Assembly: GCA_027063065.1 (NCBI GenBank) | Contig: JAMOSO010000003.1 | Coordinates: forward strand, 1,524-65,523 | Source: Planctomycetota bacterium | GTDB taxonomy: Bacteria; Planctomycetota; JAMOSO01 | Length of the DNA: 64,000 nt | Reading direction: 5' to 3' | Shown here: positions 8,537 through 60,333 of the stretch, piece by piece | How the letters are laid out: each line of letters opens with the position of its first letter | Position numbering within the stretch: the first letter of the stretch is position 1 | Program-made: the position numbers and the translations under genes | Notes under the pieces: generated by a model | Database searches by the model: none | What the model was told of the DNA's origin: nothing | Seen by the model: only the letters and a program-made list of their open reading frames with translations

Positions 8537-8545
8537 TCTTTACCC

Positions 8546-8806
8546 TTATTTTTTCTTATGTCCACGGAATGTGCGTGTTGGCGCAAATTCACCTAATTTG
8601 TGACTTACCATCATTTCAGTAATAGCGACATCAACAAATTTGTTACCACAATGAATTGAAAAAGTACAACCAACAAAATCTGGGATAATTGTACAGGCTC
8701 GAGCCCAAGTCTTAATGGGTTTTTTATTTCCCTCAGCTTTAGCTTTCTCAACTTTTTTAATTAACTTGAGGTCAACTGCGGGACCTTTTTTTATAGATCT
8801 ACTCAT
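8546..8806 (-). CDS. rpsS: 30S ribosomal protein S19
   Basis: 86 aa, [15 protein letters not shown]... classic S19. Confidence 0.95.
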
Positions 8807-9636: not shown

Positions 9637-9637
9637 T

Positions 9638-9919
9638 TTATACGAACTCTATTGAGTTATCCTTATTCAAAGTAACATAAGCTTTTTTCACTTGTGCGCT
9701 GCGTCCGTAACCACCTTTACGATTGCGACGCTTTGCAGCGTGACAAACAATAGTGCGTACATTTTCAACTTTTACAGAAAAAAGCTCTTCTATAGCTTTT
9801 CCAATTTGGATCTTATTGGCACGCTTATCAACCTCAAAAGGATACGTATTTTGAGTATTGATCATAGTCATGCCCTTTTCACTTACGATAGGACGTTTTA
9901 CAATTTCATGTGCTTTCAT
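9638..9919 (-). CDS. rplW: 50S ribosomal protein L23
   Basis: 93 aa, L23 family. Operon position. Confidence 0.9.
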
Positions 9920-10542: not shown

Positions 10543-10552
10543 TTTCTATTCC

Positions 10553-11182
10553 TTAGCCTAACTTATTGGTTGAACGAATAAAAACATGTCCACCCTTGGG
10601 TCCTGGGACACCGCCCTTAACCACAATAAGAGACTTTTCGACGTCGATTTCAAGAACTTGTAAATTACGCATAGTAATACGTTTATTTCCGTATTGACCT
10701 GGCATTTTCTTACCCTTGATAGTTTTTCCTGGATCTGCACACATTCCGATAGAGCCTGGCTTTCTTTCCCAATCTCCACCATGCGATGCACGACCACCTC
10801 CGAATCCCCAGCGTTTTACAACACCAGAAAAACCGCGGCCTTTAGAAACACCCACAACATCGACGCTAGCAACATCAGCAAAGATGTTTACGTCTAAATC
10901 TTTCTCAACGTCAACTTCTTGACCATCATCAAGACGTACTTCACGTACAACTTGTTTAACAGCCTTACCGTTCTTAGCAGCCTTACCCGCTTCTGGTTTA
11001 TTAATACGTGATTTTTTCTTGTCACCAAAACCAATTTGGATCGCACTGTAACCATCCTTTTCAACCGTCTTGACCTGCAAGATTGGACAAGGACCTGCTT
11101 CAATTACTGTAGCCGGCACCAACTTACCATCTACAAAAAGATGAGTCATACCAAGCTTTTTTCCTAAAATTCCAGTCGCCAT
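10553..11182 (-). CDS. rplC: 50S ribosomal protein L3
   Basis: 209 aa, MATGILGKKLGMTHLF... classic L3. Confidence 0.95.
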   Translation of the reverse strand: MATGILGKKLGMTHLFVDGKLVPATVIEAGPCPILQVKTVEKDGYSAIQIGFGDKKKSRINKPEAGKAAKNGKAVKQVVREVRLDDGQEVDVEKDLDVNIFADVASVDVVGVSKGRGFSGVVKRWGFGGGRASHGGDWERKPGSIGMCADPGKTIKGKKMPGQYGNKRITMRNLQVLEIDVEKSLIVVKGGVPGPKGGHVFIRSTNKLG

Positions 11183-11190
11183 AATACTTC

Positions 11191-11505
11191 CTAGAATTTC
11201 TCTTTCAAACTAATTGAAATACCAGCCGGCATAGTCAAACGACCAACAGCATCAATAGTTTTAGGGGTCAAATCAAGCAAATCGACTAAACGTTTATGAG
11301 TACGAGCCTCAAATTGTTCACGCGACTTCTTGTTAACATGCGGAGAACGCAATACTGTATAACGTTCTATCCTTGTTGGAAGTGGGATTGGACCTGCGAC
11401 CTTGGCTCCAGATTTCTTAGCTGTTTCAACAATGTCAAAAGTAGCTTTATCTAGTAGCTCATGATCATAGGCTTCAATCTTTATCCGGATTCTTTCTCCA
11501 GCCAT
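11191..11505 (-). CDS. rpsJ: 30S ribosomal protein S10
   Basis: 104 aa, [16 protein letters not shown]... classic S10. First gene of S10 operon. Confidence 0.95.
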
Positions 11506-11675: not shown

Positions 11676-12050
11676 TTATTTTTTAGGACGTTTTGCACCA
11701 TACTTTGAACGACCTTGTCTGCGCGACTCTACACCTGTAGCATCATAAACACCGCGCACAACGTGATAACGCACACCTGGAAGATCACGAACACGACCAC
11801 CACGCACCAATACGATACTATGCTCTTGTAAATTATGACCTTCACCACCGATATAGGCAGTTATTTCTTTCCCGTTAGAAAGACGAACACGCGCAATCTT
11901 ACGCAATGCCGAATTAGGCTTCTTTGGGGTTTGAGTTTTCACCTGAGTACATACACCACGCTTAAAAGCACAGCTTTCAAGCACAGGTGAATTAGAACGT
12001 TTTTTTACTTTAACGCGACCCTTACGGACCAGTTGATTAATTGTTGGCAT
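11676..12050 (-). CDS. rpsL: 30S ribosomal protein S12
   Basis: 124 aa, [12 protein letters not shown]... classic S12. Start codon lies 14 nt inside the 3' end of the rpoBC ORF. Confidence 0.95.
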
Positions 12051-15000: not shown

Positions 15001-18000
15001 ACCACGATCTTTCAACCTGCGAATAATAAATGGTTGATAAAGTTCCAAGGCAATGCGTTTAGGCAATCCACATTGATGCAATTTTAATTCAGGTCCCACA
15101 ACAATTACAGAACGGGCTGAATAATCCACACGCTTACCTAATAAATTGCCACGGAATCTACCCTGCTTACCTTTAATCATATCAGTTAATGATTTCAGAG
15201 GACGATTACCTGTTCCCAATACAGCACGCTTACAACGAGCATTATCAAATAAAGCATCAACTGCTTGTTGTAGCATACGTTTTTCATTTTTGATAATAAT
15301 TTCTGGAGCATTTAAATCCATTAGATTTTTCAATCTATTATTACGATTAATTACTCGCCTATACAAATCATTCAAATCACTTGTAGCAAAATTACCTGAT
15401 TCCAAAGGAATAAGAGGTCGCAATTCAGGAGGTATAACGGGTATCACATTAAATATCATATCTTCTGGTTTATTTAATGATTCACCAAAGGCCTCTACTA
15501 TGCGCAAACGTTTGATAATATTCTTTTTAGTTTGTTGAGATTTTGTTTTTTCAAAATTTTCTCTTAACTCTACTGCCATTTTAACAACGTCAATAGTAGA
15601 TAAAATATCACGTATTGCTTCTGCACCCATAGCTGCACGGAACTCTGCACCAAACTTAGCACGAGTTTCTGCATACTCTTCTTCAGAAAGTATTTCACAA
15701 AATTTCAACGGAGTATCACCCGTTTCAATAACTATATATTTTTGGAAATAAATAACTTGCTGTAAATCAATTGTTTTAATGTCTAGCAAATTAGCAATTT
15801 TAGAAGGAATAGCCTTAAAAAACCAAATATGCGCAACTGGAGCAGCTAAATTAATGTGCCCCATTCTTTCACGACGCACTTTAGACCTAACTACAGATAC
15901 GCCACAACGGTCACAAGTAATACCTTTATATTTGATACCTTTATGCTTGCCACAAAAACATTCCCAGTCCTTAGTAGGCCCAAAAATCTTTTCACAAAAC
16001 AAGCCGTCACGTTCTGCACGGAACGAACGGTAATTGATAGTTTCTGGTTTTTTAACTTCACCATGACTCCAAGACCGCACTTCCTCAGCTTTGGCAATAG
16101 ATATACAAACTCGTGCAATATCATTAATTTTATCTATTTCACCTGTTTCAGGGGCTGCAGCTTCAACAGCGTCTGCCAACTCTGTTCCCGCGAAAATATC
16201 TTCTGTATCTGATTGATGTTTTTCAGTACGTAAATTTAAACCCAAACCACGGATTTCATTAACTAATACTTGAAAAGAAACTGGAGTACCAGATTCTAAA
16301 ACATTTTTTCCTCGAATCATAGATTCGTATATTTTTGTTCTTCCATCAACATCGTCAGATTTTACAGTCAAAAGTTCTTGTAAAATAGATGCTGCTCCAT
16401 AAGCCTCTAAAGCCCAAACTTCCATTTCTCCAAAACGCTGACCACCCATTCTAGCTTTACCGCCTAATGGTTGTTGCGTAATCAAAGAATAAGGACCTGT
16501 ACCACGTGCATGAATTTTGTCTTGCACTAAATGATGCAATTTCAACATATACATCACGCCAACAGTTGTACGTTGTTTAAACTTCTCACCCGTACGACCA
16601 TCATAAAGTTGTGATTTACCGCTTGGATTCATGCCCGCTTCGTTTAAAGCTTCGGCTATATCCTCTTTATTAGCACCAGTAAATACTGGAGTAATAGCTT
16701 GATATCCCATTAGCTTAGCTGCAAAGCCTAAGTGAGTTTCCAAAATCTGACCGACATTCATTCGCGATGGTACGCCTAACGGATTTAAACATATATCAAC
16801 GGGAGTACCATCTTCCAAGAATGGCATATCTTCTTGAGGCATTACCCTTGATACAACACCTTTATTTCCGTGTCGACCCGCCATTTTATCACCAGCTTGT
16901 AATTTTAACTTTCTAGCAACATAAACTTTAACAAGCTCTAACACTCCATGAGGAAGTTCATCACCATAACGCAAGTTATTTAATGCTTTCTCTTTTTCTG
17001 CACACAAAGCTGACACACCTGCATCATACTCTAAAATTGCATCTTTACATTGCCTTTCCTTGCCAGGTTCAAATTTAATATCTTCAACCTTCAAACTCTC
17101 TGAAATAGCAATGTACTCATCAGCTTTAAGACCCATAGGTAAAACACCAACCTTACGACCTTTAACATCAACAAGAGGTGCCCCATTAAGTTCTTCAAGT
17201 GTAGCAAATTTTTTCTTAATTAATTTAATAATTTTCTCATTACTCTCTTCGCGTACAACCTTAAGTTTTGCTGTCGGAGCTCTACGTCTTGGTGCGCCAT
17301 CTTCACCGCCACCATTTCGCTTAAACTTCTTAACATTAACTACAGTGCCAATAACACCTGGTTTAACGCTCAAAGAATCATTTTTTACATCTTCAGCTGA
17401 TTTACCGAAAATTGAATATAATAATTTTTCTTCTGGCGTTAAATCGCTTTTAGATCTCGGTGCAATTTTCCCTACTAAAATATCTCCAGGATTAACTTTA
17501 GTACCAATAGCTACTACGCCACTGTCATCTAAATTTGCCAAGGCGTCTTCTGGAACATTAGGTATATCACGAGTAAATTCTTCTTGACCTAACTTAGTCG
17601 CCCTAATTTCAGCAGAAAAACACTCTATATGAATAGAAGTAAATGTGTCATTTTTTAATAAATTTTCATTTACTAAAATAGCGTCTTCAAAGTTATAACC
17701 TTCCCAAGGTACAAACGCCACTGTAATGTTTTTACCTAAGGCCAAAACACCACCGTCAGTTGCAGGGCCGTCCGAAATAACCTGTCCAGCACTAACCTTT
17801 TCACCAACTTTTACCAATGGTTTTTGATTAATACAAGTACGCTCATTCAAACCCTCAAACTTACGCAATTTATATTCTTTGTCACCTATCACAATTAAAT
17901 TAGATTGAACTTTTGTAACTGTCCCTGCTTCCTCAGCAATGACAATCATTCCAGAATTTTTAGCAATTTCTGCCTCCATTCCTGTAGCAACCCAAGGTTG

Positions 18001-19890
18001 TTCAGTACGCAACAAAGGCACTGCTTGACGTTGCATATTAGATCCCATCAATGCACGATTAGCGTCATCATGCTCTAAGAAAGGTATCAAAGAAGCTGAT
18101 ACACCAACCAATTGTTTAGTTGATATATCCATTAATGTAACTTTTGATGAAGCAACTAATTTTACATCTTGTTGATTTCTAACTAATACTTGATCAGGAA
18201 CAATACGATTACCGTCCATCTCAACGTCTGCTTGCACAATAAATTGATCTTCTTCTTCATCAGCACGCATTTCTACTAATTCATCGGTAACGCACCCGTC
18301 TACTACCTTACGATAAGGAGTTACAATAAATCCCATATCATTTATAGATGCATAAATAGATAAAGACACAATCAAGCCAATATTAGCGCCCTCTGGTGTC
18401 TCAATAGGACATACTCGCCCGTAATGAGACATGTGAACATCTCGCACCTCAAAGCCTGCGCGTTTACGATTAAGACCACCTGGCCCCAAAGCAGAAAGTC
18501 TGCGTTCATTTGTTAACTGCGAAAGCGGGTTTGATTGATCGACAATATGAGATAATTCACCGCGACTAAAGAAATACTCAATAGCTGATGAAACAGCCTG
18601 GGACTGAACCAATGAACGAGGAGTTAAACGATCCTCGTTTTTTAAAGTCATTTTTTCTTTAACACCACGAGTTAAACGCAATAATCCACGTTGTATTTCC
18701 ATGCCTAACATCTGATCTATTGTTCGCACACGACGATTACCTAAATGATCGATATCATCTAAATGCGCGCCGTTACTTCCCGAACGTATATCAAGCAAAT
18801 ATTGAACAATGCCTTGCATATCAGTTTGAGTCAAAGTAAAAATTTGTTCGTCTACATTGACATTTAACTTACGATTTAAACGAAATCGACCAATATTTCC
18901 TAAATTATAACGAGAAGGATTCTCAAATCTTTCTTCAAATAATTCTCTCGCTTTATCAATAGGAGCCGGACTACGAGGGCGTACTTGCTGATATATTCTA
19001 ATTTTGGCTTCGTCGGCACTTTTTGTAGTATCCTGACGAATAGTATTCAATAACAAATCATCTTTAACTTCTTTAATAACAGAAAAACTTTTCAGTCCTG
19101 TTGACTCAATAGCTGCTATCATTTCTTCAGGAATCACTTCTTTTGACTCAAGAAGAACCTCACCCGTATTAGGATCGATAATATCTTCAACTAAAACACA
19201 GTTCGCCAATTGTTTGTAATCTGATTTTGAATTAATATTTATAGTTTCCACATTATAAAAACATGAAAGAATATCCTTATCGCTACTATTTTCACCCATG
19301 GTAGCGCGTAAAAAACAAGTGGCAACTACTTTGACACGTTGATCAATTTTTAAACGTAAAATATTACGATTAGTAACTTCCAACTCCATCCATGAGCCCA
19401 TTTCAGGTATAATGCGACAAGTAACTAATTTTTGACCTGATGGATGTGTAATTTCTGCAAAATCCACTCCTGGAGAACGCTGAATTTGTGATACGACAAC
19501 GCGTTCAGCACCATTTATCAAAAATTCACCGCCACCTATCATTTTGGGAACTTCACATAAATAGATAGATTCTTCGACTGACTCATCGTCACGTGTAAAA
19601 CGCAACCAAAGTTTAAGTGGATATGAATAGGTTAGACCTAAATCTCTACACTGTTGTACAGTGAAACGTGGCTCTCCCAATTCGTACTTGATGTACTCAA
19701 GAGCCATCGAGCCATCATAGCTCGATATGGGGAATAGCTCGCTAAATATTTTTTCGAGGCCTACATGTTGACGATCACAATATAGAACATCTTTTTGGAG
19801 GAAGGATTGATAAGACTTTCGCTGAATATCAGTTAATGTTCCAACTTTTGCGATAGATTCAACCTTTTTACCGTAGTGACGGATTTCCAT
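12037..19890 (-). CDS. rpoBC: DNA-directed RNA polymerase beta-beta' fusion protein (RpoB-RpoC single polypeptide, 2617 aa)
   Basis: Single uninterrupted ORF. N-terminal ~1225 aa carry RpoB motifs (…GPGGL…, NMQRQAVPL, …[18 protein letters not shown]…). After a linker (…[54 protein letters not shown]) comes the RpoC N-terminus ([16 protein letters not shown]…[11 protein letters not shown]…CFCGKHKG) and NADFDGD catalytic motif through to the C-terminus. Junction maps to roughly 16100-16220. Confidence 0.9.
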
Positions 19891-27110: not shown

Positions 27111-28595
27111 TTAACCAAGTAACGACAAGACTGACTGACTCATAGTATTTGCTTGCGACATCATCGATGTACCCGACTGCATCAAGATCTGATTTTTTGT
27201 AAATTCCATCATCTCTTTGGCAAAGTCTACGTCACGAATTCTACTTTCAGAAGCTGTTAGGTTTTCATTCGTAACCCGCAAAGATGAGATATTAGCATCT
27301 AAAGTATTTTTCTGAAATGCACCCAACTGCGAACGCTGACTTGACACATCAGCAATAGCCAAATCAATAATCTTTACCGCAGCATCTGGATCTGTAGACA
27401 AATCATTATCTCCACCAGATTTCAAAGTAGACAAAAAGCCACTTCTAGCATTACCATCACTATCTACAAACAATGTTTTAGTACCTAATAATGTAGAATG
27501 AGAAGACGCTATCCCCACTACTTTTTGCTCGTTAGGATTAGTGTTTGGGCCTAACTGAAAAGTCATACCACTTTCATGCACTACAAAAGTTCTACCTTTT
27601 GTACCGGTTCCACCATCTCCAACACTAGAAGAGGAGCTTCCCAACAACTCTATTTCACCAGTAAAGAATGTAGATGAAACGTTTAAAAAATTGCCCGATG
27701 CCGAGCCAGACATACCATTTACTGTAGCCTCAGCATCTAACCCATCATCAAAATCCTGTGTCCCAACAGTGGAAACATGAAACATATCAGCCGTACCTTC
27801 TAATACCTCAACTTCAATTCTAGCGTCACTACCAAAATCGGTAGACCATAAAGTACCATCTGTATTTGCTCTAATTCCTGTATTTTCACTTAAAGCATTA
27901 ATACTATCAACAGCTTGAGCTCTAGTTTGATCTTTACCAAAAGATATAACCTCAGATCCTTCTTTTCCAGAAAATCTTATAGTAACATTTTTAGTGATTG
28001 GATCAGGAATTTCATCAGTATTAACCGCACGCTCTGAAACTCTCGATACAGCCACATTTATAGAAATTGTACTTGCAGAACCAAATTGTAAACCCCTAAT
28101 TGTTGTGCCACTTAAATTTGTTGCTGGACCTGTTGTGCCACCAATATTTGTTGTAATCCTAAAATCCTGCGAACCATCCAATAAACGCTTACCAGAAAAT
28201 CTAGTTGAATTTGCAATACGATCTATAGTTGCTATAGCAGAATCTACCTCATCCTGATTAGCCCTTATTTGCTGATCATCCATACCACCAGTATTTGCAG
28301 CCTCCACAGCCAAAACCCTAATATTTTTCAATAAAGTATTAACCTCACTTAACGCACCTTCTGCAGTGCCTATAATATTTGATGCGCGTTGAGAGTTTTC
28401 AATTGCTTGATCCATACCTCCGATTTGCGCTCTTAATTGCTCTGAAATAACCAAACCCGCAGGTTTGTCAGAAGCTCTATTAATTGCAAATCCTGAGCTT
28501 AACTTTTCTAGAGAACTATTCATTTTATCATCAGTTCTCAAAAGTTGATTGTGCGCATTGATTGATGCCACATTGTTGTTAATGCGTAGTGCCAT
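27111..28595 (-). CDS. flagellin
   Basis: 494 aa. Conserved flagellin N-terminal domain (MALRINNNVASINAHNQLL…LEKLSSGFAINRASDKPAGL…) and C-terminal domain (…QRSQLGAFQKNTLDANISSLRVTNENLTASESRIRDVDFAKEMMEFTKNQIL…). Strong AAGGAGG RBS. Confidence 0.95.
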   Translation of the reverse strand: MALRINNNVASINAHNQLLRTDDKMNSSLEKLSSGFAINRASDKPAGLVISEQLRAQIGGMDQAIENSQRASNIIGTAEGALSEVNTLLKNIRVLAVEAANTGGMDDQQIRANQDEVDSAIATIDRIANSTRFSGKRLLDGSQDFRITTNIGGTTGPATNLSGTTIRGLQFGSASTISINVAVSRVSERAVNTDEIPDPITKNVTIRFSGKEGSEVISFGKDQTRAQAVDSINALSENTGIRANTDGTLWSTDFGSDARIEVEVLEGTADMFHVSTVGTQDFDDGLDAEATVNGMSGSASGNFLNVSSTFFTGEIELLGSSSSSVGDGGTGTKGRTFVVHESGMTFQLGPNTNPNEQKVVGIASSHSTLLGTKTLFVDSDGNARSGFLSTLKSGGDNDLSTDPDAAVKIIDLAIADVSSQRSQLGAFQKNTLDANISSLRVTNENLTASESRIRDVDFAKEMMEFTKNQILMQSGTSMMSQANTMSQSVLSLLG

Positions 28596-29050: not shown

Positions 29051-29758
29051 ATGATGATGAAGAAAAAAGCATTCACCCTAATCGAGTTGATGATCGTTGT
29101 AGCTATTATCGCTATTATTGCAGCGATTGCGATCCCCAACTTACTAGCCGCAAAAATGAGCGCTAACGAAACAGCCTCTATCGGTAGTTTAAGCGCCATT
29201 AAAAATGCCGAAACTTTGTACGCAGAGCGAGATATTGATGGCGACGGCAAAGGCAATTACTGGAATTTAAACATTTATGGCCTTTACTCTATCCAAAACA
29301 ATGCTGGTACTGCCATTAAACTAATTCAAGACCCTGCCACTGCTATGTCAGATACAAGCACTGTATTGACAAAAGCTGATGCTGATGCCGCTTTCGTTGC
29401 AGCTGGCGCAACTGCAGCCCCTGGTTATGGCATCGCTTATGTAGCCGCCAACAAAGCCCCTAAACAAGGTTACTACATTGCAGCAGGTACCGACGGTTGG
29501 GATACAAGCACAGATTCTTCTGTAGCCTTAGACTGTGTTACAGGTGGACAATATGTATTCAGTGCATATCCAGAGAAATACAATTCTACTGGCGTAATGA
29601 CATACATACTTAACCAACAAGGCGTTGTATATCAAGGTGATTTAGCCCAAGGTGCAGCTGTAGCTAAATGGCCTGCAGAAAACCCTCAAACAGCATTGTT
29701 AACTGCTACAAATGCAGGCGTATCAAACGCTACTGCCAAATGGCAAGTTGCTAAATAA
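29051..29758 (+). CDS. type IV pilin / major pseudopilin-like protein (prepilin-type N-terminal methylation domain)
   Basis: 235 aa. MMMKKKA|FTLIELMIVVAIIAIIAAIAIPNLLAAK… is a class III signal with Glu+5 (Ala rather than Gly at -1). Only one Cys. Good RBS (AAAGGAG). Own terminator. Confidence 0.85.
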   Translation: MMMKKKAFTLIELMIVVAIIAIIAAIAIPNLLAAKMSANETASIGSLSAIKNAETLYAERDIDGDGKGNYWNLNIYGLYSIQNNAGTAIKLIQDPATAMSDTSTVLTKADADAAFVAAGATAAPGYGIAYVAANKAPKQGYYIAAGTDGWDTSTDSSVALDCVTGGQYVFSAYPEKYNSTGVMTYILNQQGVVYQGDLAQGAAVAKWPAENPQTALLTATNAGVSNATAKWQVAK

Positions 29759-39100: not shown

Positions 39101-39341
39101 CTTCTATTATAACCTTTTCAACCATTTCAGGAGTAATAGGTTCAATATATGTACGATCCGCCATATCCGGATCTGTCATTATGGTTGCAGGATTTGAATT
39201 AATAAGAACTACCTTAATTCCTTCCTCCATTAACACTTTACAGGCTTGAGCTCCAGAATAGTCAAACTCACAGGCTTGTCCAATTACAATGGGGCCTGAG
39301 CCTATCACCAACACTTTTTTGATTGAATTATCTCTTGGCAC
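36123..39341 (-). CDS. carB: carbamoyl-phosphate synthase large subunit
   Basis: 1072 aa, duplicated ATP-grasp halves plus MGS-like domain. Start/stop overlaps with pyrG and carA. Confidence 0.95.
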
Positions 39342-40996
39342 TATTTATCTCGCTTATTTGAAAAAATAATTGCTTCTTTAACTAAATTATAAAACAGTGG
39401 AGAAGGAGTCTCCAACCGTGATGTCAACTCTGGGTGAAACTGACAGGCCATAAAATATGGGTGACTAGGCAATTCCATTAATTGCATAATACGCAAATCA
39501 CTGGCGTGACCAGAAAATACAAGTCCAGCATCTTCTATTTGTTGTATATAGTCAGGGTTTACTTCATAACGATGCCTAAAACGCTGACGTACAGAAGTAG
39601 CCCCATATAACGCATGAGCTTTTGTACCTTCTTTTATTAAGACATCTTGCCCACCCAAACGCATACTGCCACCTTTTTTAGTTACTGCTTTTTGTTCTGG
39701 CAAAATATCGATAACCGCTGTTCCAACATCTATACCATCTTCCAAAATTTCTGCAGTATTAGCATCTTTAATACCCACTACATTGCGAGCATATTCAATA
39801 ACTGCCAATTGCATACCATAACATATACCCAAAAAAGGAATATTGTTTTCTCGGCAATAAGTTATTGTGCTAATTTTGCCCTCTATTCCGCGTGCTCCAA
39901 AACCTCCAGGAACAATCACCCCATCGACAAGCTCTAAAACTTCTGCCATTTTTTTAGGCTGGGTTTCTAAGCCATCTGTATCTAACCAAACCACATTAAC
40001 TTTCACATCATTGTTAGCAGCTGAATGGGTTATGGATTCGACAACGGAAGCGTATGAATCTTCTAACTCGGTATACTTTCCAGCAATAGCAATATCTATT
40101 GTTTTGGATGGATTTTTAATGTTTTTTAATAATACATTGACCCTATTACGCCAAGCATTAATTTTAGGCGGTGAATATATATTTAACTTTTTATGTAAAG
40201 TTTCTACTAAACCTTCTTGCTCATATATTAATGGTATTTCATATATACATTCAACATCAACGCCAGATATTACATCGCTTGGTTCTAAATTACAAAATAG
40301 AGCTATTTTTTCTTTAATTTTTGGAGTCAAATACTCTGAACAACGCCCTATAATTATATCGGGTTCTATACCAAATTGTTGCAAACTTTTTACACTCATC
40401 TGCGTTGGCTTAGACTTTTGTTCATTAACACCATTAGGCACGGGAACATAAGTCAAATGAATGAATATAATATTTTCTGGGCCAAATTCAAATTTTAATT
40501 GGCGCACCGCCTCTATATAAAACTGATTTTCTAAATCGCCTACCGTGCCACCAATCTCCAATAAACCCAAATCTGCCTGTTCTGTCTCAAGAGTATTATA
40601 TATTTTCTCTTTAATCATATCTGTAACATGAGGAATAAATTGCACTGTTTTGCCTAAATAGTCTCCAGCGCGCTCTTTTTCTAAAATCTCTTTAAAGACC
40701 TTTCCCATGGTGATATTCCAGTCAAACTTAGTGTCGACTCCTATAAAGCGTTCATAATGACCAAAGTCCATGTCTACCTCGCCACCGTCATCCTGTACAT
40801 AAACTTCACCATGTTCCACAGGATTCATAGTACCTGGATCAGTATTGAGATAACCATCACATTTTATTGGAACAACTTTTAAGTTAGCGGACAATAATTT
40901 GCCAATTGAGGCAGCAGCAATGCCTTTGCCCAACCCGGAGAGAACACCCCCCGTAACAACAATTAATTTAGGGGATTTTTTCTTTTTTCTGCTCAT
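39341..40996 (-). CDS. pyrG: CTP synthase
   Basis: 551 aa. N-terminal synthetase domain ([19 protein letters not shown]) and C-terminal GATase (GICYGMQ). Confidence 0.95.
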
Positions 40997-41062: not shown

Positions 41063-43552
41063 CTATTCTTGCTCACGTATTTTAAGTTCAATTAACTTTA
41101 ATCGCAATTTTGTCTCAGCATTGTCTGGATAACGATTTAAGATTTCCTCATAAACACGCTTAATAGCATCGTATAAACGGTTTTTTTCAAAGTTCTCAAC
41201 TAATTTATACCGTCCTTCAATATAATTCATTTCTATTTGTTTTAATTTTTTACATTTATTTAAGTATCCATATAAGTCTTGTACTTGCGTATAGGCTTTA
41301 GACATTGCATAATCACTTTCAAATTTAGTTAACAACTGCCCAGCCAGTACAAAATCACCTTTTGAAATAACTTTTCTAATTTTTTCAACCAATTTATTGG
41401 CTGCTAAATTCATTTGCAATGCATCATAGTCACGTTGTTTTTTTTGTAAGTTTTTACGTAAAACTCTTATTTGCTTCTCCACTGGCAAACCAGCAAAACG
41501 CACTTCATATTGACGACAATCATTATAAAAATGAGCTATCTTTTTTCTATGCTCTGGCATATCAACACGCAAACGCTGAAAGGTTAGTTTTAAATCTGAC
41601 AAAGTTTTACTAGATTTAACTTTAATATCTTCCTGTATCTTACGAGCACTAAGAATAAACTCTGTACCTGCTTTACTGTTTAAAATACTTCTGACTACCT
41701 TACTCGCCTTAGAAAAATCTTTCTCGCTCATAAATAATTTAGCTTGTACCAATAACTTTTTTGATGATTTATTAAACTGTGGGGAATAATTTAAAACTTG
41801 CAAAACCCTAACCTTATCATTTCTATCAGCGATTACAGACATTCCTTGATTACGCAAGGTAAATTCAAAAGGTTGTTCATCTTTAAATATGACCGACTGC
41901 ACAGGATTTTTTAAAACTAATACCTCAGATAATAATTGAGATTTTACATCAGCAGACAAAAACACCTCCTTATCTGCAACCGAAAAAGCTTCAATATCTT
42001 GTACATGCGATGACAAATCCAACCCATAAACTAAAGATGCATCTGCGACTGACGGAACTACATTCCATGCACCATTTACATATTCACAATTTAATTGATA
42101 CGGTTCAAACATATTTTTATCAATATCATATAAGACACCCTTTATACTAGCAGAGGATGCGTTACAAATTAAATCGCTGGTTAAATACCCCATAGTCTGA
42201 CTTCGTAAAACTCCACCAACATACCGTTTAACAAGTTCCAAATTTGCGATACCAACTTTTGCGTCAACTGAAAAGCATAGATTTCCTGCACTTCCTATAG
42301 TGACCATAGATTTTTTAAAAGACATAGAAGCCGATCTGCGCATTACAGCCCCCACACCTCCATCATAGATCGCCACATCATCAATCAAAACAGTGCCATC
42401 AATGCCATAAAACAAGAATGCTGGTTGAACTCTTTCAACACCTTTTGGTATAACAAAATAATCTTCAAAGCTTGCATATTTATTACTAGCACACCAAGAA
42501 CGACCTCGCAATATTACTCCATCGCCATTAACATCTTTATACAACAAAGCCAATTGCACAACGCCAGATTGCAAATCAGTCTGAATATCCACCTTGTAAG
42601 TAATCGTATCGTTATTAATTTCTATAGGATTTGCATAAACCAACTTAGATTCTAAAGTACCTATACTTTGAGCGCCTAAAACCATCAAAGAATGCTTACC
42701 GTCCATAGCATCATCACTTAATTTAATCTCTAATCCACTTTTGATAGTTGCATCCCAACCTTCTAAAATATTAGATACAGATTCAAAAGAAGAATTATTA
42801 AGCAATTTATTAATCCTAGAATCGTGATAATCCGCAGGACGCAAAATAAATGCCAACACAACAACAATTGCCAATACTACAGAAACAATAACTGGCATTT
42901 TTTTTACTAAGCCAATATCGCGTTTAATTATATTTTTTTTATCCTGAATCTCTTTCAAATCTTCATCAGTACCTACAAAAAGTAAAGTTTTACCTATTCT
43001 GAACACATGATTTTGAGACAAATTTATAGTTTCAACTCTAAGTTTGTTAACCCATAAACCATTAGAGCTACCCAAATCTTTAACTACCCAACCTGCACTC
43101 CCCACCTCCACCACTGCATGCCTTTGCGAAACACCAGAATCATTTGACAAAGACACATCACAACCTTTGCGACCCAAAACTACGGACTCATTACCTAAAT
43201 CAACTTTAACCCCTTCATGTGGACCACTTAAAACTTGCAAAAATACCTGCTGATTATTTAAATCTGGCAATTGCCCAAAATAAAATAAATCCTCCCCCAA
43301 AGACACTTTATCGCCTGGACATAATTCTTGTTCACTATCAATCTTGACCCCATCAACAAATGTACCATTACTGCTACCAAGGTCGTCTATCGTAACTAAT
43401 AGCCCGTTATTTATTATTTTACAATGGGTTCTACTTAGGCCTTTTCCATTTAAACTTAAATCGCAACCTTCGTCGCGACCTATTACACAAGTTTCGGATT
43501 CAAATACAAATTCTTCAAAAACCAAACCTTTTTTGACATATAACTTAATCAC
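41063..43552 (-). CDS. Double-FHA-domain transmembrane protein with large extracytoplasmic region (CBM4_9-like beta-sandwich + C-terminal helical/TPR-like tail)
   Basis: 829 aa. Two N-terminal FHA domains (…CVIGRDEGCDLSL…SRTHCKI…LGSSNGTFVDG… and …VVLGRKGCDVSLS…SQRHAVVE…LGSSNGLWVN…). Single TM (VIVSVVLAIVVVLAFIL). Then about 600 aa periplasmic region, part of which resembles a carbohydrate-binding/jelly-roll module ending …GTVLIDDVAIYD. Confidence 0.7.
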   Translation of the reverse strand: MIKLYVKKGLVFEEFVFESETCVIGRDEGCDLSLNGKGLSRTHCKIINNGLLVTIDDLGSSNGTFVDGVKIDSEQELCPGDKVSLGEDLFYFGQLPDLNNQQVFLQVLSGPHEGVKVDLGNESVVLGRKGCDVSLSNDSGVSQRHAVVEVGSAGWVVKDLGSSNGLWVNKLRVETINLSQNHVFRIGKTLLFVGTDEDLKEIQDKKNIIKRDIGLVKKMPVIVSVVLAIVVVLAFILRPADYHDSRINKLLNNSSFESVSNILEGWDATIKSGLEIKLSDDAMDGKHSLMVLGAQSIGTLESKLVYANPIEINNDTITYKVDIQTDLQSGVVQLALLYKDVNGDGVILRGRSWCASNKYASFEDYFVIPKGVERVQPAFLFYGIDGTVLIDDVAIYDGGVGAVMRRSASMSFKKSMVTIGSAGNLCFSVDAKVGIANLELVKRYVGGVLRSQTMGYLTSDLICNASSASIKGVLYDIDKNMFEPYQLNCEYVNGAWNVVPSVADASLVYGLDLSSHVQDIEAFSVADKEVFLSADVKSQLLSEVLVLKNPVQSVIFKDEQPFEFTLRNQGMSVIADRNDKVRVLQVLNYSPQFNKSSKKLLVQAKLFMSEKDFSKASKVVRSILNSKAGTEFILSARKIQEDIKVKSSKTLSDLKLTFQRLRVDMPEHRKKIAHFYNDCRQYEVRFAGLPVEKQIRVLRKNLQKKQRDYDALQMNLAANKLVEKIRKVISKGDFVLAGQLLTKFESDYAMSKAYTQVQDLYGYLNKCKKLKQIEMNYIEGRYKLVENFEKNRLYDAIKRVYEEILNRYPDNAETKLRLKLIELKIREQE

Positions 43553-43580
43553 TTACACTCCTTATAGAGCAATTTAAAAT

Positions 43581-44414
43581 CTAACCACCAACAGGTTTTA
43601 ATATGACTACAGAATAAATAGCTGACAAATCAATTGCTGGCTTAACTGCAACTCTGTAAAACATTTCTGTTGACAATTTCTCAACATTTACAACCGTACC
43701 CACAAATAAACCAGATGGAAAAACAGGATCTGTTCCACTTGTCAAAACCCTATCGTCAAGCTTAACAGCAATATTTTCGTTTGGTTTACCACTATCAAAT
43801 AAATATTTCATGCTACACAATAAGGAAAATGCGTTGGTCTTACCGCCTTCTAGCAAACCTTGTTTTTTATTGCGTTCTATGCAACTAGCTATTTTACAAC
43901 TATTATGAACCAATAACGCCACTGTTGAAGACTTGGCAGATACTGATTTAATACGACCCAATACACGCCCGCCCTGCACCACACCCATACCGACCTTTAT
44001 CCCATCAATTTCACCAACATCAACTGTTAATTCATCTAAAAAATGTTGGTAATTACGCCCTAACACATCAGCAGGGATAGGTATAAACCTAGCAGTTAAT
44101 ATACGATGGTTATTAGTATCTTTTAACAAACGTTCTAAATTAGAAACCTCATCGGATAATGTGATTAATCTATCGTGCATTATCCTATTAGCTTTTAATA
44201 AATGGCTTTTTTGCGACGGTTCCATCGGCCACAAACAATCTGCTACAACATCAAAAACACTAGCTGTTTTGATGCGAGAATGCACTAAAAACCGCGTAAC
44301 TGGAGCAAAAACTGATTGAACTTCAAGACGCGTAAGCTCAGAAGTACTTATAGGCAGATATATTGTCAACGCAATCGCTATTAAAAATAATAACAGAGGC
44401 TTAAAATCAATCAT
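43581..44414 (-). CDS. mreC: rod shape-determining protein MreC
   Basis: 277 aa. N-terminal TM, coiled-coil, beta-rich C-domain with MreC motif (…DDRVLTSGTDPVFPSGLFVGTVVNVE…). Confidence 0.85.
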   Translation of the reverse strand: MIDFKPLLLFLIAIALTIYLPISTSELTRLEVQSVFAPVTRFLVHSRIKTASVFDVVADCLWPMEPSQKSHLLKANRIMHDRLITLSDEVSNLERLLKDTNNHRILTARFIPIPADVLGRNYQHFLDELTVDVGEIDGIKVGMGVVQGGRVLGRIKSVSAKSSTVALLVHNSCKIASCIERNKKQGLLEGGKTNAFSLLCSMKYLFDSGKPNENIAVKLDDRVLTSGTDPVFPSGLFVGTVVNVEKLSTEMFYRVAVKPAIDLSAIYSVVILKPVGG

Positions 44415-44462
44415 GTGTCAAGCAACCAATTGACAACAGACAGGCATTATTAAAACTCTAAA

Positions 44463-45512
44463 TTATTCTTCACGACCGCTTTGTAAGGCGGGAACTAAAA
44501 TATCCAACTGTTCTAAAACCTCACCAGTACCTTTAGCCACAGCGTAAAGAGGGTCTTTAGCAACCATTACTTTAATATTTGTTTCATTTGCAATAACTTG
44601 ATCTAATCCGTGCAACATAGCCCCGCCACCTGTCATTGTTATACCAAAATCTAAAATATCAGATGCAACCTCAGGAGGTGCATGTTCTAAACAATTTTTA
44701 ATAGATTGAATAATTGCAGCAATTGGCTCTGCTAAAGCCTCCCTAATTTCTTCAGAGCTAACTGTTATAACACGAGGCAAGCCAACCATTAAATCACGCC
44801 CTTTTACTTCCATGGTTTTTTCTTCATCATAGGGGAAAGCACTACCTAAATTTATTTTAATTGCTTCAGCAGTGCGTTCTCCTATTAATAAATTATATTT
44901 TTTCTTCATATAATTTATAACCGACTCATCCATAGCATCACCTGCTACTCGCAAAGACTCGCTAATAACAATGCCTGCTAAAGATATAATAGCTACCTCA
45001 GTTGTACCACCGCCAATATCTACTATCATTGATCCTGTTGGTTCTGTAATAGGTAAGCCTACGCCAATACCAGCTGCCATTGGTTCTTCAATCAAAATAA
45101 CTTCTCTGGCACCTGCATTTTCTGCCGAATTAATTACAGCCCGTTTTTCTACGGCTGTAATACCCGATGGAATAGCAATAACAACGCGAGGCTTAACCCC
45201 CCATGATCGTTTATGCACTTTACGCATAAAATAACCCAACATGGCTTCTGTAATATCGAAATCAGCAATTACTCCATTTTTCAAAGGACGTATTGCTACT
45301 ATATTACCCGGTGTTTTGCCCAACATTTTTTTTGCTGCATCACCAACCGCATTACCATTTAGCAATACTTGATTGGTACCTTTTTTAACCGCTACAACAG
45401 AAGGCTCATTTAATACTATGCCTTCTCCACGCACACAAACTAAAACATTTGCCGTACCCAAGTCGATGCCCATATCAACGGACATTAAATTCCAAATTTT
45501 ATCTAAAATCAC
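44463..45512 (-). CDS. mreB: rod shape-determining actin homologue MreB
   Basis: Actin-fold ATPase motifs (GIDLGTANVLV, …DIGGGTTE…). ORF-track start is a GTG at 45512. An ATG 9 codons downstream (MSVDMGIDLGTAN) may be the real start. Confidence 0.95.
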   Translation of the reverse strand: MILDKIWNLMSVDMGIDLGTANVLVCVRGEGIVLNEPSVVAVKKGTNQVLLNGNAVGDAAKKMLGKTPGNIVAIRPLKNGVIADFDITEAMLGYFMRKVHKRSWGVKPRVVIAIPSGITAVEKRAVINSAENAGAREVILIEEPMAAGIGVGLPITEPTGSMIVDIGGGTTEVAIISLAGIVISESLRVAGDAMDESVINYMKKKYNLLIGERTAEAIKINLGSAFPYDEEKTMEVKGRDLMVGLPRVITVSSEEIREALAEPIAAIIQSIKNCLEHAPPEVASDILDFGITMTGGGAMLHGLDQVIANETNIKVMVAKDPLYAVAKGTGEVLEQLDILVPALQSGREE

Positions 45513-45649
45513 TTTAAGTAAAATTCAGTTAATTCTAAATAATTTAAAGTAATAGCTATTACTGTTGCAACAACAGCTATTATCATAAACCAAACATAAA
45601 TACTATCTTTGTTAATAATAGGCTGATCAATAGACTCTTGTTGAAGCAT
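45509..45649 (-). CDS. Possible 46-aa single-TM micro-protein overlapping the junction of the coiled-coil gene and mreB
   Basis: Hand translation gives MLQQESIDQPIINKDSIYVWFMIIAVVATVIAITLNYLELTEFYLS*. ATG 23 nt inside the upstream gene. TGA stop overlaps the mreB GTG start. No SD checked. Speculative. Confidence 0.25.
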   Translation of the reverse strand: MLQQESIDQPIINKDSIYVWFMIIAVVATVIAITLNYLELTEFYLK

Positions 45650-46490
45650 TATCGCCCTCCTTAATTTGTTTTTCTGTATAATCATTTAAGATTCGTGCTG
45701 AACACATATCAGGAAATATTTTTTCAACCTCTACCTTACCTAAATACTCAGAATCACGATATACTGTAAAGCGATAGCCTTGTTTGACTTCGTTTTGACT
45801 GCCAACACTTAGCATTACTAAATTAGCATCTGCTCTCACAGCCAATACTTGAGCCCTTATAGGTGTAGCTGGTCCACCAGAAATTGCAATTTCTTCTACA
45901 GGGATACCATTTTCTCTTAACTGTGCAATTATACCTTTGTTAATCTCCAATTGCTTTGTGACATCTGCTAATTTAATTTCCGCTTTTTCTAATTCAGTCT
46001 TAAGAACCTGCAAAGACTCTTCTGCTTCTGCTCTTTTTGTAGTTGCCTCTAAACGTTCAGCTTTAGCAGTGTCAGTAATTTCTTTAAGTTCGTCAGTTTT
46101 AGCTCTTAAATCCATAACCATCTGATCTTTTTCAGATAATTCTCGATCTTTGGCATCTATTTTCAAATCTTTAGAAGACACAATAGCCTCCAATTTGGTT
46201 ACTCTATTATTAGCTTCACTGAGTTCGTCACGTTTTTCTTTAAAGTCATTTGTCATATTTTCTAGGCTTGTTTTTACCGCCTCTAAAGCATCGTTAGTAC
46301 TAACAATTTTATCTTTCAACTGTGCCACTTTAGATTTCAAGTCTGTTGATTCCTTTTTGTAATCGGCACTTACCTTTTCATATTTACTACGCCAATCAAC
46401 ACGATGAGTAAACAAAACCACAGAGGTTCCACAATAAACGATGCTTAAAATCAACATCAAAAAGGCCATTATTTTTGATACTACATTCAT
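45627..46490 (-). CDS. Membrane-anchored coiled-coil protein with C-terminal beta-rich domain (function unknown)
   Basis: 287 aa. N-terminal TM (IMAFLMLILSIVYCGTSVVLF), about 160 aa of heptad-like K/E/L-rich sequence, C-terminal about 90 aa (…IRAQVLAVRADANLVMLSVGSQNEVKQGYRFTVYRDSEYLGKVEVEKI…). Confidence 0.7.
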   Translation of the reverse strand: MNVVSKIMAFLMLILSIVYCGTSVVLFTHRVDWRSKYEKVSADYKKESTDLKSKVAQLKDKIVSTNDALEAVKTSLENMTNDFKEKRDELSEANNRVTKLEAIVSSKDLKIDAKDRELSEKDQMVMDLRAKTDELKEITDTAKAERLEATTKRAEAEESLQVLKTELEKAEIKLADVTKQLEINKGIIAQLRENGIPVEEIAISGGPATPIRAQVLAVRADANLVMLSVGSQNEVKQGYRFTVYRDSEYLGKVEVEKIFPDMCSARILNDYTEKQIKEGDNASTRVY

Positions 46491-46502
46491 CGATTTCTCC
46501 TG

Positions 46503-46862
46503 TTAGACCAGCGATTTCCTGACCAATGTTCTCATATAATCCCAATTAAAGGGTTTGTCAACATATCCGTAACAATCTAGTTCTATGCACTTCATCAATC
46601 TATTATCAGTGCCATATGCTGTCATAGCGATTATATTAATTTCTGGGTAGATGTTAAGTGTTTCCTTAATTAAATCTATTCCACTTAATTCAGGCATACA
46701 AATATCACAAATTAACAAATCAAACCTGTGCTCAGCAAGTGTTTTTAAAGCTGTTGGAGAATGTGATTCACTAACGACATCGTACTCGTTGTTAAAACGT
46801 TTGACAAAAAGATGTAAAATATCCTCTTCATCATCCACAACTAAAATTCGTTTTTGACTCAA
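46503..46862 (-). CDS. CheY-like single-domain response regulator (receiver domain only)
   Basis: 119 aa. ILVVDDEEDIL…DLLICDICMPELSGIDLIKE…NIIAMTAYG with phospho-acceptor Asp and conserved T/K positions. Confidence 0.8.
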   Translation of the reverse strand: MSQKRILVVDDEEDILHLFVKRFNNEYDVVSESHSPTALKTLAEHRFDLLICDICMPELSGIDLIKETLNIYPEINIIAMTAYGTDNRLMKCIELDCYGYVDKPFNWDYMRTLVRKSLV

Positions 46863-58031: not shown

Positions 58032-59081
58032 ATGACTAAGGCCTTAAGCGAAATAATTAAGGCTTTAAAGCCAATTAATTGCAATCTAAAAAAAGACATC
58101 AACATCACCTCTTTAGCGTCTCTGAGCGACGCCAAAGAAGGTGATATCAGTTTTTTAACCAATACAAAATATATTGCCCAATTATCTTCTACATGTGCAT
58201 CTGCTGTTTTGGTTAAACCAGAACATGCCGATATACAATCCAACGCCATTTTAATTATCGTAGATAATCCTAATCTGGCCTTTGCGGAAGTAGCCAAGTT
58301 ATTGGGGTTTGAAAGACCTGTATCGCCTATGGGCATATCAGACAAGGCTTGTATTGCAAAAGATGCTCACATCTCAAATGATGTAAAGATACAAGCATAT
58401 AGTGTGATAGCTTCTGGTGTAAGCATTGGCGAATCGACAAATATTTATCCAAATGTAGTCATAGAAAACAATGTCAAAATTGGTAAATACTGCACTATCT
58501 ATCCTAATGTTACTATTATGGATGGCTGTGAAATTGGCGATAATGTCATAATTAATGCTGGTAGTGTAATAGGAAGTGACGGTTTTGGATTTGATTTAGA
58601 AAGTCCTGATAACACCAAAATACCACAAGTCGGCAACGTAATCATTGGCAATAATGTAGAAATTGGTGCCAATGTGAGCATTGATAGAGCAAGGTTTGGA
58701 TCTACAATTATCCAAGACAACGTCAAAATCGACAATCTTGTTCAAATCGCTCACAACGTCGTAATAGGTAAAAATTCAGTGATAGTTTCTCAAACTGGTA
58801 TAGCAGGTAGCTCTAAACTTGGCACGGGAGTAATAGTTGGAGGGTGTACTGCCATTTCAGGACATCTGCGTATAGCAGATAATTCTATGTTTGCTGGACG
58901 CTCAGGGGTTACCAAATCAATAACTAATGCTGGCATTTATGCTGGATTACCTGCACAACCTATTAATTCATGGCGAAAAGATATAGCCAATATTCGGTCT
59001 TTACATAAAATAAAAAAGCATATTAAAGACCTTAAAGAAAGGATACTTAAAATTGAACACAATACCCCAAAAAACACTTAA
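58032..59081 (+). CDS. lpxD: UDP-3-O-(3-hydroxyacyl)glucosamine N-acyltransferase
   Basis: 349 aa. N-terminal LpxD domain plus left-handed beta-helix hexapeptide repeats (…IGDNVIINAGSVIGSDGFGF…). Confidence 0.9.
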   Translation: MTKALSEIIKALKPINCNLKKDINITSLASLSDAKEGDISFLTNTKYIAQLSSTCASAVLVKPEHADIQSNAILIIVDNPNLAFAEVAKLLGFERPVSPMGISDKACIAKDAHISNDVKIQAYSVIASGVSIGESTNIYPNVVIENNVKIGKYCTIYPNVTIMDGCEIGDNVIINAGSVIGSDGFGFDLESPDNTKIPQVGNVIIGNNVEIGANVSIDRARFGSTIIQDNVKIDNLVQIAHNVVIGKNSVIVSQTGIAGSSKLGTGVIVGGCTAISGHLRIADNSMFAGRSGVTKSITNAGIYAGLPAQPINSWRKDIANIRSLHKIKKHIKDLKERILKIEHNTPKNT

Positions 59082-60333
59082 ATCAACTGTTATCATAAAA
59101 GGTGTCGGCCTACACAGCGGAGAAACTGCCAATTTAATCCTTGAGCCTGCCACCGCTAATCATGGAATCAAATTTATACGTACTGATGTTGATAAAAAAA
59201 ACATCATTGAATTAAATCCAGCCAATATAGTTTATAATGATAGGCGCACTCAATTAACCAATGGCAACGTCAACATCAATACTATAGAACACCTACTTGC
59301 CGTACTACATATTTTAGGTATCACAGAATTAACTATAAAATGTGACTGCGAGGAACTACCCGGTTGTGATGGATCTGGTAAAATTTACCTAGAAAAAATT
59401 GATGCTGTCGGAATTGAAACTTTAGGTGCCGAAACAAACATATTAGAAATCAATACCCCTCTTACTGTTGATAGTGAACATGGCAATATTACTGCTATAG
59501 CAAATAAAGATTTCATTATAGACTATACCTTAGACTACTCTGCCTTTGGTGTCAGCCTGCAACATAAAACTATTAATATTACAGAGCAAACATTTCGAGA
59601 AGAAATTGTCAACTGCCGTACTTTTTGTATGAAGCAAGAGTGGGATCAACGGTTAGAACACAACCTTGGCAAAGGTGCTAGTCTAGAAAATACATTAGTG
59701 ATGGATAAGGACACTCCTTTAGAAAATAAATTTAATCAACCGTTAGAGTTAAGCTGTCATAAAATTTTAGATTTAATTGGTGATTTATATCTAACTGGTC
59801 AGCCCGTTAAAGGCAAATTTATTGCTTTGAAATCTGGGCATGCCGCAAATGTTGAACTGACTCAAAAAATATTTAACCAAAGGCCTACCGAACCCGTTTA
59901 TCATCTTGAAGAACTATTAAAAGTTTTACCTCACCGATATCCAATGATGATGGTTGATCGCTTAGAAAAATTAGAACCTAAAAAAAGAGCTGTAGGATAT
60001 AAAAATTTAAGTTTTAATGAGCCTTTTTTTCAGGGGCACTTTCCTGGACAGCCTGTTATGCCTGGTGTATTGCAAATTGAAGCTATGGCACAATTAGCTG
60101 GATGCATTTTAATTGATCCTAATAGCAAAACTAAGTTAATACCAATGTTTACTGCCATCGACGGAGTTAAGTTTAGACGTCCCGTTGTACCTGGCGATAG
60201 ACTGGATATGGATACTCGTATTGTAAAGTTTAGACGAAATATGGGTGAAGTAATCGGAAAAGCCACTGTCAATGGTCAGGTTGCCTCAGAGGCCACTTTT
60301 AGATTTATTCTTATAGAAGGACCTCAAGAATGA
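59053..60333 (+). CDS. lpxC/fabZ: bifunctional UDP-3-O-acyl-GlcNAc deacetylase / 3-hydroxyacyl-ACP dehydratase (LpxC-FabZ fusion)
   Basis: 426 aa. Residues 1-~280 LpxC (…TLKSTVIIKGVGLHSGETANLILEPA…HG…, …HKILDLIGDLYL…). Residues ~285-426 FabZ hot-dog (…LPHRYPMMMVDRL…GHFPGQPVMPGVLQIEAMAQ…). Overlaps lpxD 3' end by 29 nt. Confidence 0.9.
   Translation: MNTIPQKTLKSTVIIKGVGLHSGETANLILEPATANHGIKFIRTDVDKKNIIELNPANIVYNDRRTQLTNGNVNINTIEHLLAVLHILGITELTIKCDCEELPGCDGSGKIYLEKIDAVGIETLGAETNILEINTPLTVDSEHGNITAIANKDFIIDYTLDYSAFGVSLQHKTINITEQTFREEIVNCRTFCMKQEWDQRLEHNLGKGASLENTLVMDKDTPLENKFNQPLELSCHKILDLIGDLYLTGQPVKGKFIALKSGHAANVELTQKIFNQRPTEPVYHLEELLKVLPHRYPMMMVDRLEKLEPKKRAVGYKNLSFNEPFFQGHFPGQPVMPGVLQIEAMAQLAGCILIDPNSKTKLIPMFTAIDGVKFRRPVVPGDRLDMDTRIVKFRRNMGEVIGKATVNGQVASEATFRFILIEGPQE

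Follow-up and report, generated by a model that had tools for sequence, protein, structure and literature searches.

A double-FHA membrane protein encoded next to mreBC in a Planctomycetota bacterium: a probably lineage-specific neighbour of a conserved mreB gene block

In a 64,000-nt stretch of contig JAMOSO010000003.1 from a Planctomycetota bacterium (assembly GCA_027063065.1; this whole stretch is called the window), the genes mreB and mreC are followed, in the position where mreD normally sits, by a gene encoding an 829-aa protein with two FHA domains, designated FHA829. An earlier description made from the letters alone (the sequence-only reading) had taken this arrangement as a sign of a phospho-signalling input into the rod-shape machinery, and we examined the window together with about 20 kb of flanking contig, about 84 kb in all. 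The genes concerned belong to an unbroken run on the minus strand from 46862 to 35020, in the order receiver, CC287, mreB, mreC, FHA829, pyrG, carB and carA. At the head of the run, a 119-aa response-regulator receiver (46503-46862; Pfam Response_reg, 1.4e-22) lies 12 nt upstream of CC287 (45627-46490), a 287-aa transmembrane (TM) and coiled-coil protein with one N-terminal TM helix and coiled-coil-type matches only. These genes are followed by mreB (349 aa, 44463-45512; Pfam MreB_Mbl, 4.7e-141), mreC (277 aa, 43581-44414; Pfam MreC, 1.4e-33) and FHA829, a bitopic membrane protein (41063-43552; Pfam FHA, 1.4e-31, and Yop-YscD_cpl, 1.4e-32, in two stretches each), with pyrG (39341-40996) downstream of it. 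The coordinates, strand and order previously given for the five open reading frames (ORFs) from the receiver to FHA829 were all confirmed; Pfam supports the assignments of the receiver, MreB, MreC and the FHA protein, and the earlier description of a TM/coiled-coil protein upstream of mreB also holds. The apparent 114-nt gap between CC287 and mreB is occupied by a micro-ORF overlooked in the sequence-only reading (46 aa with a single TM helix, 45509-45649, minus strand; seen in the translation and in the public gene call), which shares 23 nt with the CC287 end and 4 nt with the mreB start.

The gap between mreC and FHA829 is 28 nt, and that between FHA829 and pyrG is 66 nt; the FHA829 start codon is GTG, with the ribosome-binding site AAGGAG upstream. 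As had been noted before, no terminator-like site was detected between FHA829 and pyrG, and terminator-like sites across the region occur at chance level (8 found, 8.1 expected). A possible terminator, the 15-bp hairpin at 45550-45582, was rejected, since it lies inside the conserved micro-ORF and encodes its TM helix. Co-transcription of FHA829 with mreBC is plausible, and by the same logic so is its co-transcription with the pyrimidine genes. A short gap says little about function in this compact genome, where pyrG and carB are -1 nt apart and equally short gaps join unrelated genes on the same strand (FHA829-pyrG, 66 nt; rplI-dnaB, -1 nt; dnaB-bamA, 3 nt). The mreC-FHA829 junction was also assembled on a second contig, where the neighbouring genes are mostly the same, and the GC content at third codon positions (GC3) of FHA829, 0.247, equals that of its neighbours, so FHA829 is a native gene, real and intact. 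The organism is a diderm, given that outer-membrane genes for BamA, Skp, LpxD, LpxC-FabZ and LpxA are encoded at 54.9-61 kb.

Between mreC and pyrG there is no MreD-like ORF, in agreement with the earlier statement that this interval has no such gene, and when hidden Markov models (HMMs) for MreD, PBP2 and RodA were derived from sequences of relatives, they gave no match in about 84 kb of contig. FHA829 was itself considered as an MreD (PF04093) and rejected. MreD has about 160-180 aa and 4-6 TM helices, whereas FHA829 has 829 aa and one TM helix; it has no Pfam MreD match, and an MreD HMM built from 30 sequences of related loci found nothing in it at E < 1. The two have the gene position after mreC in common, which by itself does not define the family, and show no sequence similarity.

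Both FHA domains proposed in the sequence-only reading were recovered. Domain 1 (residues 14-92; 43277-43513, minus strand, as for all parts of the protein) has its best Pfam FHA stretch at residues 22-86 and its best PDB match in 3gqs (8.8e-9), while domain 2 (residues 105-193; 42974-43240) has its best Pfam Yop-YscD_cpl stretch at residues 107-193 and matches PDB entry 1uht (2.2e-8) and GarA. The FHA score (PF00498) is 109.1 bits against a gathering threshold of 20.7. In characterised FHA domains the phosphothreonine is contacted by Gly-Arg, Ser-x-x-His and Asn-Gly residues, and reading of the translation found them as G25-R26, S40-R41-T42-H43 and S61-N62-G63 in domain 1 and as G127-R128, S142-Q143-R144-H145 and S163-N164-G165 in domain 2. 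Judged from these positions, the FHA pair keeps every residue needed for phosphothreonine binding, and the binding itself is predicted. A single TM helix follows (residues 219-237, MPVIVSVVLAIVVVLAFIL; 42842-42898); it is the sole Kyte-Doolittle window above 1.6 in FHA829, and 592 residues come after it, which agrees with the one helix and large part beyond the membrane described earlier. The segment N-terminal to the helix, KEIQDKKNIIKRDIGLVKK, is rich in lysine and arginine (K/R). Because there is one helix and a K/R-rich flank precedes it, residues 1-218 most likely lie in the cytoplasm and the final 592 in the periplasm.

Three regions can be distinguished in the predicted periplasmic part. 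The first, at about residues 242-404 (42341-42829), is a putative CBM4_9-like beta-sandwich, detected with phmmer via intermediate sequences. Two proteins are matched with whole-library E-values of 8.7e-8 and 1.1e-7, and the regions matched in those two proteins are CBM_4_9 repeats that pass the Pfam threshold with 30.7 and 30.5 bits; Pfam CBM_4_9 (PF02018) run directly on residues 238-407 gave no match even at E = 10. The earlier label of a CBM4_9-like domain is thus supported indirectly, through the two intermediate repeat proteins, and not by a direct Pfam match. The second region, at about residues 405-593 (41774-42340), has no match in Pfam, NCBIfam, PDB or a library of 1.84 billion proteins. 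The third, residues 594-829 (41066-41773), is a helical K/R-rich C-terminal domain in which K and R make up 22% of residues; searches for TPR-type domains gave weak hints at this end (TPR_14, 0.03; tol_pal_ybgF, 0.0028). AlphaFold2 was run on residues 200-829 with a two-sequence alignment, and the mean predicted local distance difference test (pLDDT) score was 39, with the beta-rich part unusable: pLDDT was about 23 in the CBM-like region and near 23 in residues 405-593, where some beta strands were placed at the start and the rest was unstructured. Residues 594-829 were modelled as all-helical, with pLDDT mostly 55-79. PDB sequence searches with FHA829 returned the FHA domains only.

A word-indexed search of 5.8 billion proteins with whole FHA829 returned its own cluster, more than 100 FHA-only matches and one further protein, P0041, which is the sole protein beyond the cluster with more than 25% coverage of FHA829. 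The four members of the cluster are virtually identical and come from ENA, JGI, NCBI/GEM and Logan assemblies. When residues 200-829 were compared with 1.84 billion representatives by phmmer, only FHA829 itself and the two CBM_4_9-repeat proteins were found, and when the C-terminal parts of FHA829 and P0041 were aligned and used as a query, nothing new was found and P0041 itself was not recovered. On these searches FHA829 appears essentially confined to one uncultured species-level lineage, with no divergent orthologue known.

Established FHA families were considered for FHA829 and rejected on their curated cut-offs. The best NCBIfam match is to FhaB (1.4e-30; FhaB-FipA, NF049868), which scored 106.4 bits against 125; TagH (TIGR03354) scored 47.8 against 120.25 and GltG (NF033760) 46.3 against 650, and all three matches are confined to the FHA domains. 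For SctD/YscD (TIGR02500) the score was 30.5 against 86, and just 55 residues of the second FHA domain match. GltG, TagH and SctD share the general design of FHA829 but have unrelated outer domains, and the same is true of other bitopic FHA proteins with a large extracytoplasmic part, for example a PQQ/FG-GAP beta-propeller; several proteins of this design (P0003, P0012, P0027 and P0028) rank among the best FHA matches. As far as its predicted architecture goes, the design of FHA829 (cytoplasmic FHA domains, one TM helix, a large outer part) is a known one, and its outer region is without relatives.

To place the locus among its relatives we scanned for MreB with one genome per species, and 80 loci among the matches listed form the basis of all locus counts given here. 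They come almost entirely from metagenome-assembled genomes of Planctomycetota (Phycisphaerae, Planctomycetia, Brocadiia-type and unclassified), and the best MreB identity among the matches listed is 71%; the source genome itself is not among the matches listed. The loci were compared through their called ORFs against the window proteins and with iteratively built HMMs. Absence of the FHA gene from beside mreC in relatives had been named beforehand, together with a bona fide mreD elsewhere, as the outcome that would refute a phospho-signalling module, and among the 50 listed loci with at least 4 kb of downstream sequence an FHA829-like gene was found in 0, compared with mreC in 35, mreD in 21, pbp2 in 21 and rodA in 12. 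In none of 79 listed loci did phmmer with whole FHA829, which readily detects FHA domains, find an FHA domain up to about 8 kb from mreB. The mreD genes of the 21 loci encode proteins of 160-215 aa with 4-5 TM helices. In the listed loci that have mreC and lack mreD, no conserved gene was found downstream of mreC; at L009, which has the most similar CC287 among the listed loci, mreC is followed by an unrelated secreted protein with no Pfam match. Among the 50 listed loci, the position after mreC is thus taken by mreD-pbp2 in 21 and by no conserved gene in the others.

The literature on this position is mixed. An early survey found MreD in no proteome of the Planctomycetes-Verrucomicrobia-Chlamydiae (PVC) group and RodZ in no Planctomycetes (PMC5147048), and in Planctopirus limnophila mreB, mreC and mreD were later reported to form one transcriptional unit (PMC6952346). 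Taken together with mreD in 21 of the 50 listed loci, these reports mean that the mreD slot is not fixed in the phylum. The mreC gene itself is highly divergent, with 5 matches in the word-indexed search of 5.8 billion proteins and 30-34% identity for the best non-self matches. Its best homologues are from Elusimicrobiota, where a canonical mreBCD-pbp2-rodA set stands after rplQ, and they are uninformative on close relatives.

What is conserved lies upstream of FHA829. Of the 75 listed loci with enough upstream sequence, 54 have a full-length CC287 homologue at 1.0-1.7 kb before mreB, an equivalent of the micro-ORF lies between CC287 and mreB in 56 listed loci, and mreC follows mreB in 43 of 62. 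The micro-ORF products share a (D/N)(I/V)Y(T/S) motif before the TM helix. The CC287 family is absent from anammox-type loci (for example L031, L054 and L074), and neither CC287 nor the microprotein belongs to a Pfam or NCBIfam family or was found described in the literature. Across the loci compared, CC287-microprotein-mreB-mreC appears as the conserved block, and this is the durable finding of the comparison.

In CC287 an N-terminal TM helix precedes a coiled coil of about 160 aa, and the protein ends in a beta domain of about 85 aa. When its profile was aligned by hhalign with an MreC profile from the same loci, the match had a Prob of 91% and E = 1e-6, spanning the end of the coiled coil and a segment in which the CC287 motif I-S-V-G-S-x-D-G-V-x-x-G-M stands opposite I-D-x-G-S-x-x-G-V of MreC. 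The beta domain alone matched MreC at 28% and 6e-4, and ten column-shuffled controls were weaker (0.05-0.75). A low-confidence model of the C-terminal domain resembles both PilZ and MreC barrels, and a PDB profile search with the CC287 family gave coiled-coil noise only. CC287 is best described as a conserved, MreC-like putative partner gene of mreB in Planctomycetota. Since published Planctomycetes genomes are without FtsZ and RodZ (PMC10632474, PMC5147048), it is reasonable to regard CC287 and the microprotein as candidate membrane partners of MreB.

The receiver at the head of the run (PF00072) scored 80.4 bits against 30.2 and keeps D10, D11, D53, T81 and K103 in translation, that is, the acidic pocket, the phospho-acceptor Asp, the Thr and the Lys, which bears out the CheY-like, phosphorylatable receiver of the sequence-only reading. 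A receiver directly upstream of CC287 was found in none of the listed loci; receiver matches occur elsewhere, in larger proteins. The genes upstream of CC287 in the listed loci encode instead an Lnt-like protein (20), a HEAT-repeat protein (13) or a small PilZ protein (6). The small PilZ protein (Pfam, 4.2e-7) is encoded directly before the CC287 homologue at L050 (6131-6595) and at five other Phycisphaerae loci, and with PilZ there and a receiver here, the small signalling domain that heads the same mreB block differs between lineages.

The contig also carries a kinase-like gene, located about 3.8 kb outside the window on its far side (L091, 15547-17058). It encodes a 503-aa protein with an N-terminal FHA domain, a kinase domain (Pfam Pkinase, 6.4e-45) and a C-terminal TM helix, and its presence indicates that signalling parts of the Ser/Thr-kinase type exist in this genome. 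Its catalytic loop carries HQN where HRD is usual, and the protein may thus be a pseudokinase. The flanks of about 20 kb contain this one FHA-kinase-like gene and dnaA, and no mre genes.

The reading we favour, and consider somewhat probable, is that FHA829 is a lineage-specific, phosphothreonine-reading envelope adaptor that was brought next to mreBC by rearrangement. The FHA pair in the cytoplasm would bind partner proteins that Hanks-type Ser/Thr kinases have phosphorylated, and the TM helix would link it to about 590 predicted periplasmic residues, of which the CBM4_9-like domain, the relative-free region and the basic helical end may bind an envelope glycan or protein. FHA829 would in this way couple kinase signalling to something in the envelope; its co-transcription with mreBC is probable, and it could influence envelope growth. 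Its position after mreC would be a lineage-specific gene order outside the ancestral mre block; the locus here lacks the mreD-pbp2-rodA tail that relatives often have and continues with FHA829 and then pyrG-carBA at short gaps. Nothing shows that FHA829 replaces MreD or is a dedicated Mre regulator.

Several observations weigh against treating the position of FHA829 as incidental or press on the adaptor function itself. The 28-nt gap, the shared strand and the lack of a detectable terminator fit co-expression of FHA829 with mreBC, and it is suggestive that one gene string begins with a receiver and ends with an FHA protein. The search of about 84 kb of contig found no mreD, which makes functional substitution by FHA829 conceivable, and a role in this lineage is not disproved by the non-conservation of FHA829. 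Both the placement of the outer part in the periplasm and its ligand are predictions, and the model of that part (mean pLDDT 39) is unusable; the sole kinase-like gene seen, with HQN for HRD, may be inactive.

These points lead to the strongest alternative, in which FHA829 is a dedicated Mre subunit that replaces MreD and brings a Ser/Thr input, with a His-Asp input supplied by the receiver. The placement of FHA829 28 nt after mreC with a ribosome-binding site and no terminator, the failure to find mreD, pbp2 or rodA on the contig analysed, the canonical FHA domains and the receiver 12 nt before CC287 would all suit it. There are also precedents for phospho-control of such machinery. Streptomyces has a Ser/Thr kinase that phosphorylates MreC and PBP2 (PMC4416010). 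The mycobacterial cluster fhaA-fhaB-pstP-rodA-pbpA-pknA-pknB is a second example of phospho-control; its products FhaB/FipA (Rv0019c) and FhaA (Rv0020c) are, like FHA829, FHA proteins that are encoded beside genes for cell-wall elongation or division, and they read Ser/Thr-kinase phosphorylation. That cluster includes a kinase and a phosphatase and is conserved across Actinobacteria, whereas FHA829 has no adjacent kinase and its adjacency to mreC is not conserved; FhaA and FhaB are also small or without a large part beyond the membrane, unlike FHA829. Against a dedicated subunit stand, in addition, the 0 of 50 and 0 of 79 counts among the listed loci, a receiver position that is not conserved in them, the dissimilarity of FHA829 to MreD in length, helix number and profile, the variability of the slot after mreC across the phylum, and an adjacency to pyrG that is just as tight. 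We consider this alternative unlikely. The comparison likewise does not back the earlier proposal of a phospho-input into the rod machinery, because neither the FHA gene nor the receiver is conserved in the listed loci. The connection between FHA829 and MreBC is one of adjacency alone, and we think a functional tie improbable. In its fullest form the alternative holds that in this low-GC lineage, probably of Planctomycetota, the double-FHA protein replaced the mreD-pbp2-rodA tail and, together with the receiver, places MreB, MreC, CC287 and the microprotein under dual His-Asp and Ser/Thr control. FHA829 would then sense the envelope with its CBM-like periplasmic domain and be a new regulatory subunit in a growth or division apparatus built on MreB; this we regard as distinctly unlikely. 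The sequence-only reading had not recognised the arrangement as a described module, and no paper was found in which an FHA gene is attached to mreBC.

A second alternative starts from P0041. This 877-aa protein begins with two FHA domains, which are followed by a TM helix, a CBM_4_9 domain (Pfam, 3.2e-5) and an end that is helical and matches BamD/TPR weakly, so that domain order and length resemble those of FHA829, with the CBM_4_9 domain at the same place as the CBM-like domain; BLASTP aligned the two proteins over residues 20-482 at E = 4e-18. P0041-type proteins (GCA_964641955.1; JGI contig Ga0272442_10000103) have two canonical FHA domains, a TM helix, a CBM4_9-type domain and a helical, weakly TPR-like end, as FHA829 does, but their neighbours are PilM-like and pseudopilin genes, whereas those of FHA829 are mreC and pyrG. 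P0041 heads a cluster in the order PilM-like (Amuc_1101 family, 3e-35), p282, p146, PilW-like TPR protein, GspG-like pseudopilin and second pseudopilin, and the same six genes come after a 51%-identical relative on a contig from a JGI metagenome. FHA829 might by analogy be a diverged FHA-FHA-TM-CBM-helical accessory subunit of a PilM-based machine, of the type IV pilus or type II secretion-like kind, that is encoded elsewhere, and a pseudopilin-type protein is encoded in the window at 29051-29758. The likeness fades over the outer part: phmmer with residues 240-829 found neither P0041-type protein at E < 10 in a set of 6,739 ORFs, and hhalign gave a 39-column match at the end of the CBM-like domain with E = 0.03 and a probability of 1.6%. 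No PilM-like gene was found in the window or the flanks examined. FHA829 and P0041 may still have periplasmic parts that descend from one ancestor, and a role of FHA829 in such a machine seems quite doubtful. The P0041-type clusters lie at L001 10001-20002 and L088 8001-17917, and their last pseudopilin carries a Laminin_G_3 domain; an FHA protein that heads a PilM-type pilus cluster may merit separate study. The third alternative, that FHA829 is a known FHA component of secretion or motility (SctD/YscD, TagH or GltG), draws on the Yop-YscD_cpl match of 1.4e-32, the weak NCBIfam matches and a flagellin gene in the window, but it is effectively refuted by matches that cover the FHA domains only, far below the curated cut-offs, and by the finding of no type III secretion system, type VI secretion system or Glt genes in the window or flanks.

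Other features of the window were recorded apart from the mre locus. The rpoB and rpoC genes are fused in one 2617-aa ORF (12037-19890, minus strand), with Rpb2 domains up to residue 1223 and Rpb1 domain 1 from residue 1256. A second fusion, LpxC-FabZ (426 aa, 59053-60333, plus strand), lies in a bamA-skp-lpxD-lpxC/fabZ-lpxA-lpxB string. Gene orientation switches from minus to plus at about 48.4 kb, and the GC skew changes sign near 50 kb; an origin was considered there, and no cluster of DnaA boxes was found near 48-50 kb (16 matches against 21 expected). The dnaA gene lies about 4-5 kb beyond the window start. The flagellin gene (27111-28595, minus strand) and the gene for the pseudopilin-type protein (N_methyl and DUF2950 domains, plus strand) stand near recR and rpoN. 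In the ribosomal protein operon (window 1-11200 and flank L090), secY is followed directly by rpsM, rpsK, rpoA and rplQ; adk, map and infA, which are present there in Elusimicrobiota loci, are missing between secY and rpsM, and no rpsD was called between rpsK and rpoA.

How Planctomycetes, whose published genomes lack FtsZ and RodZ (PMC5147048, PMC10632474), organise wall growth and division is still open. Should FHA829 prove to act on the Mre machinery, it would exemplify how Ser/Thr phosphorylation can control an MreB system in a diderm. On present evidence its placement is one species' gene order, and that larger significance has not been earned. The conserved part of the locus is where the wider interest appears to lie: with CC287 and the microprotein, which has about 50 aa, it offers concrete candidates for MreB's missing membrane partners that are open to testing in cultivable species.

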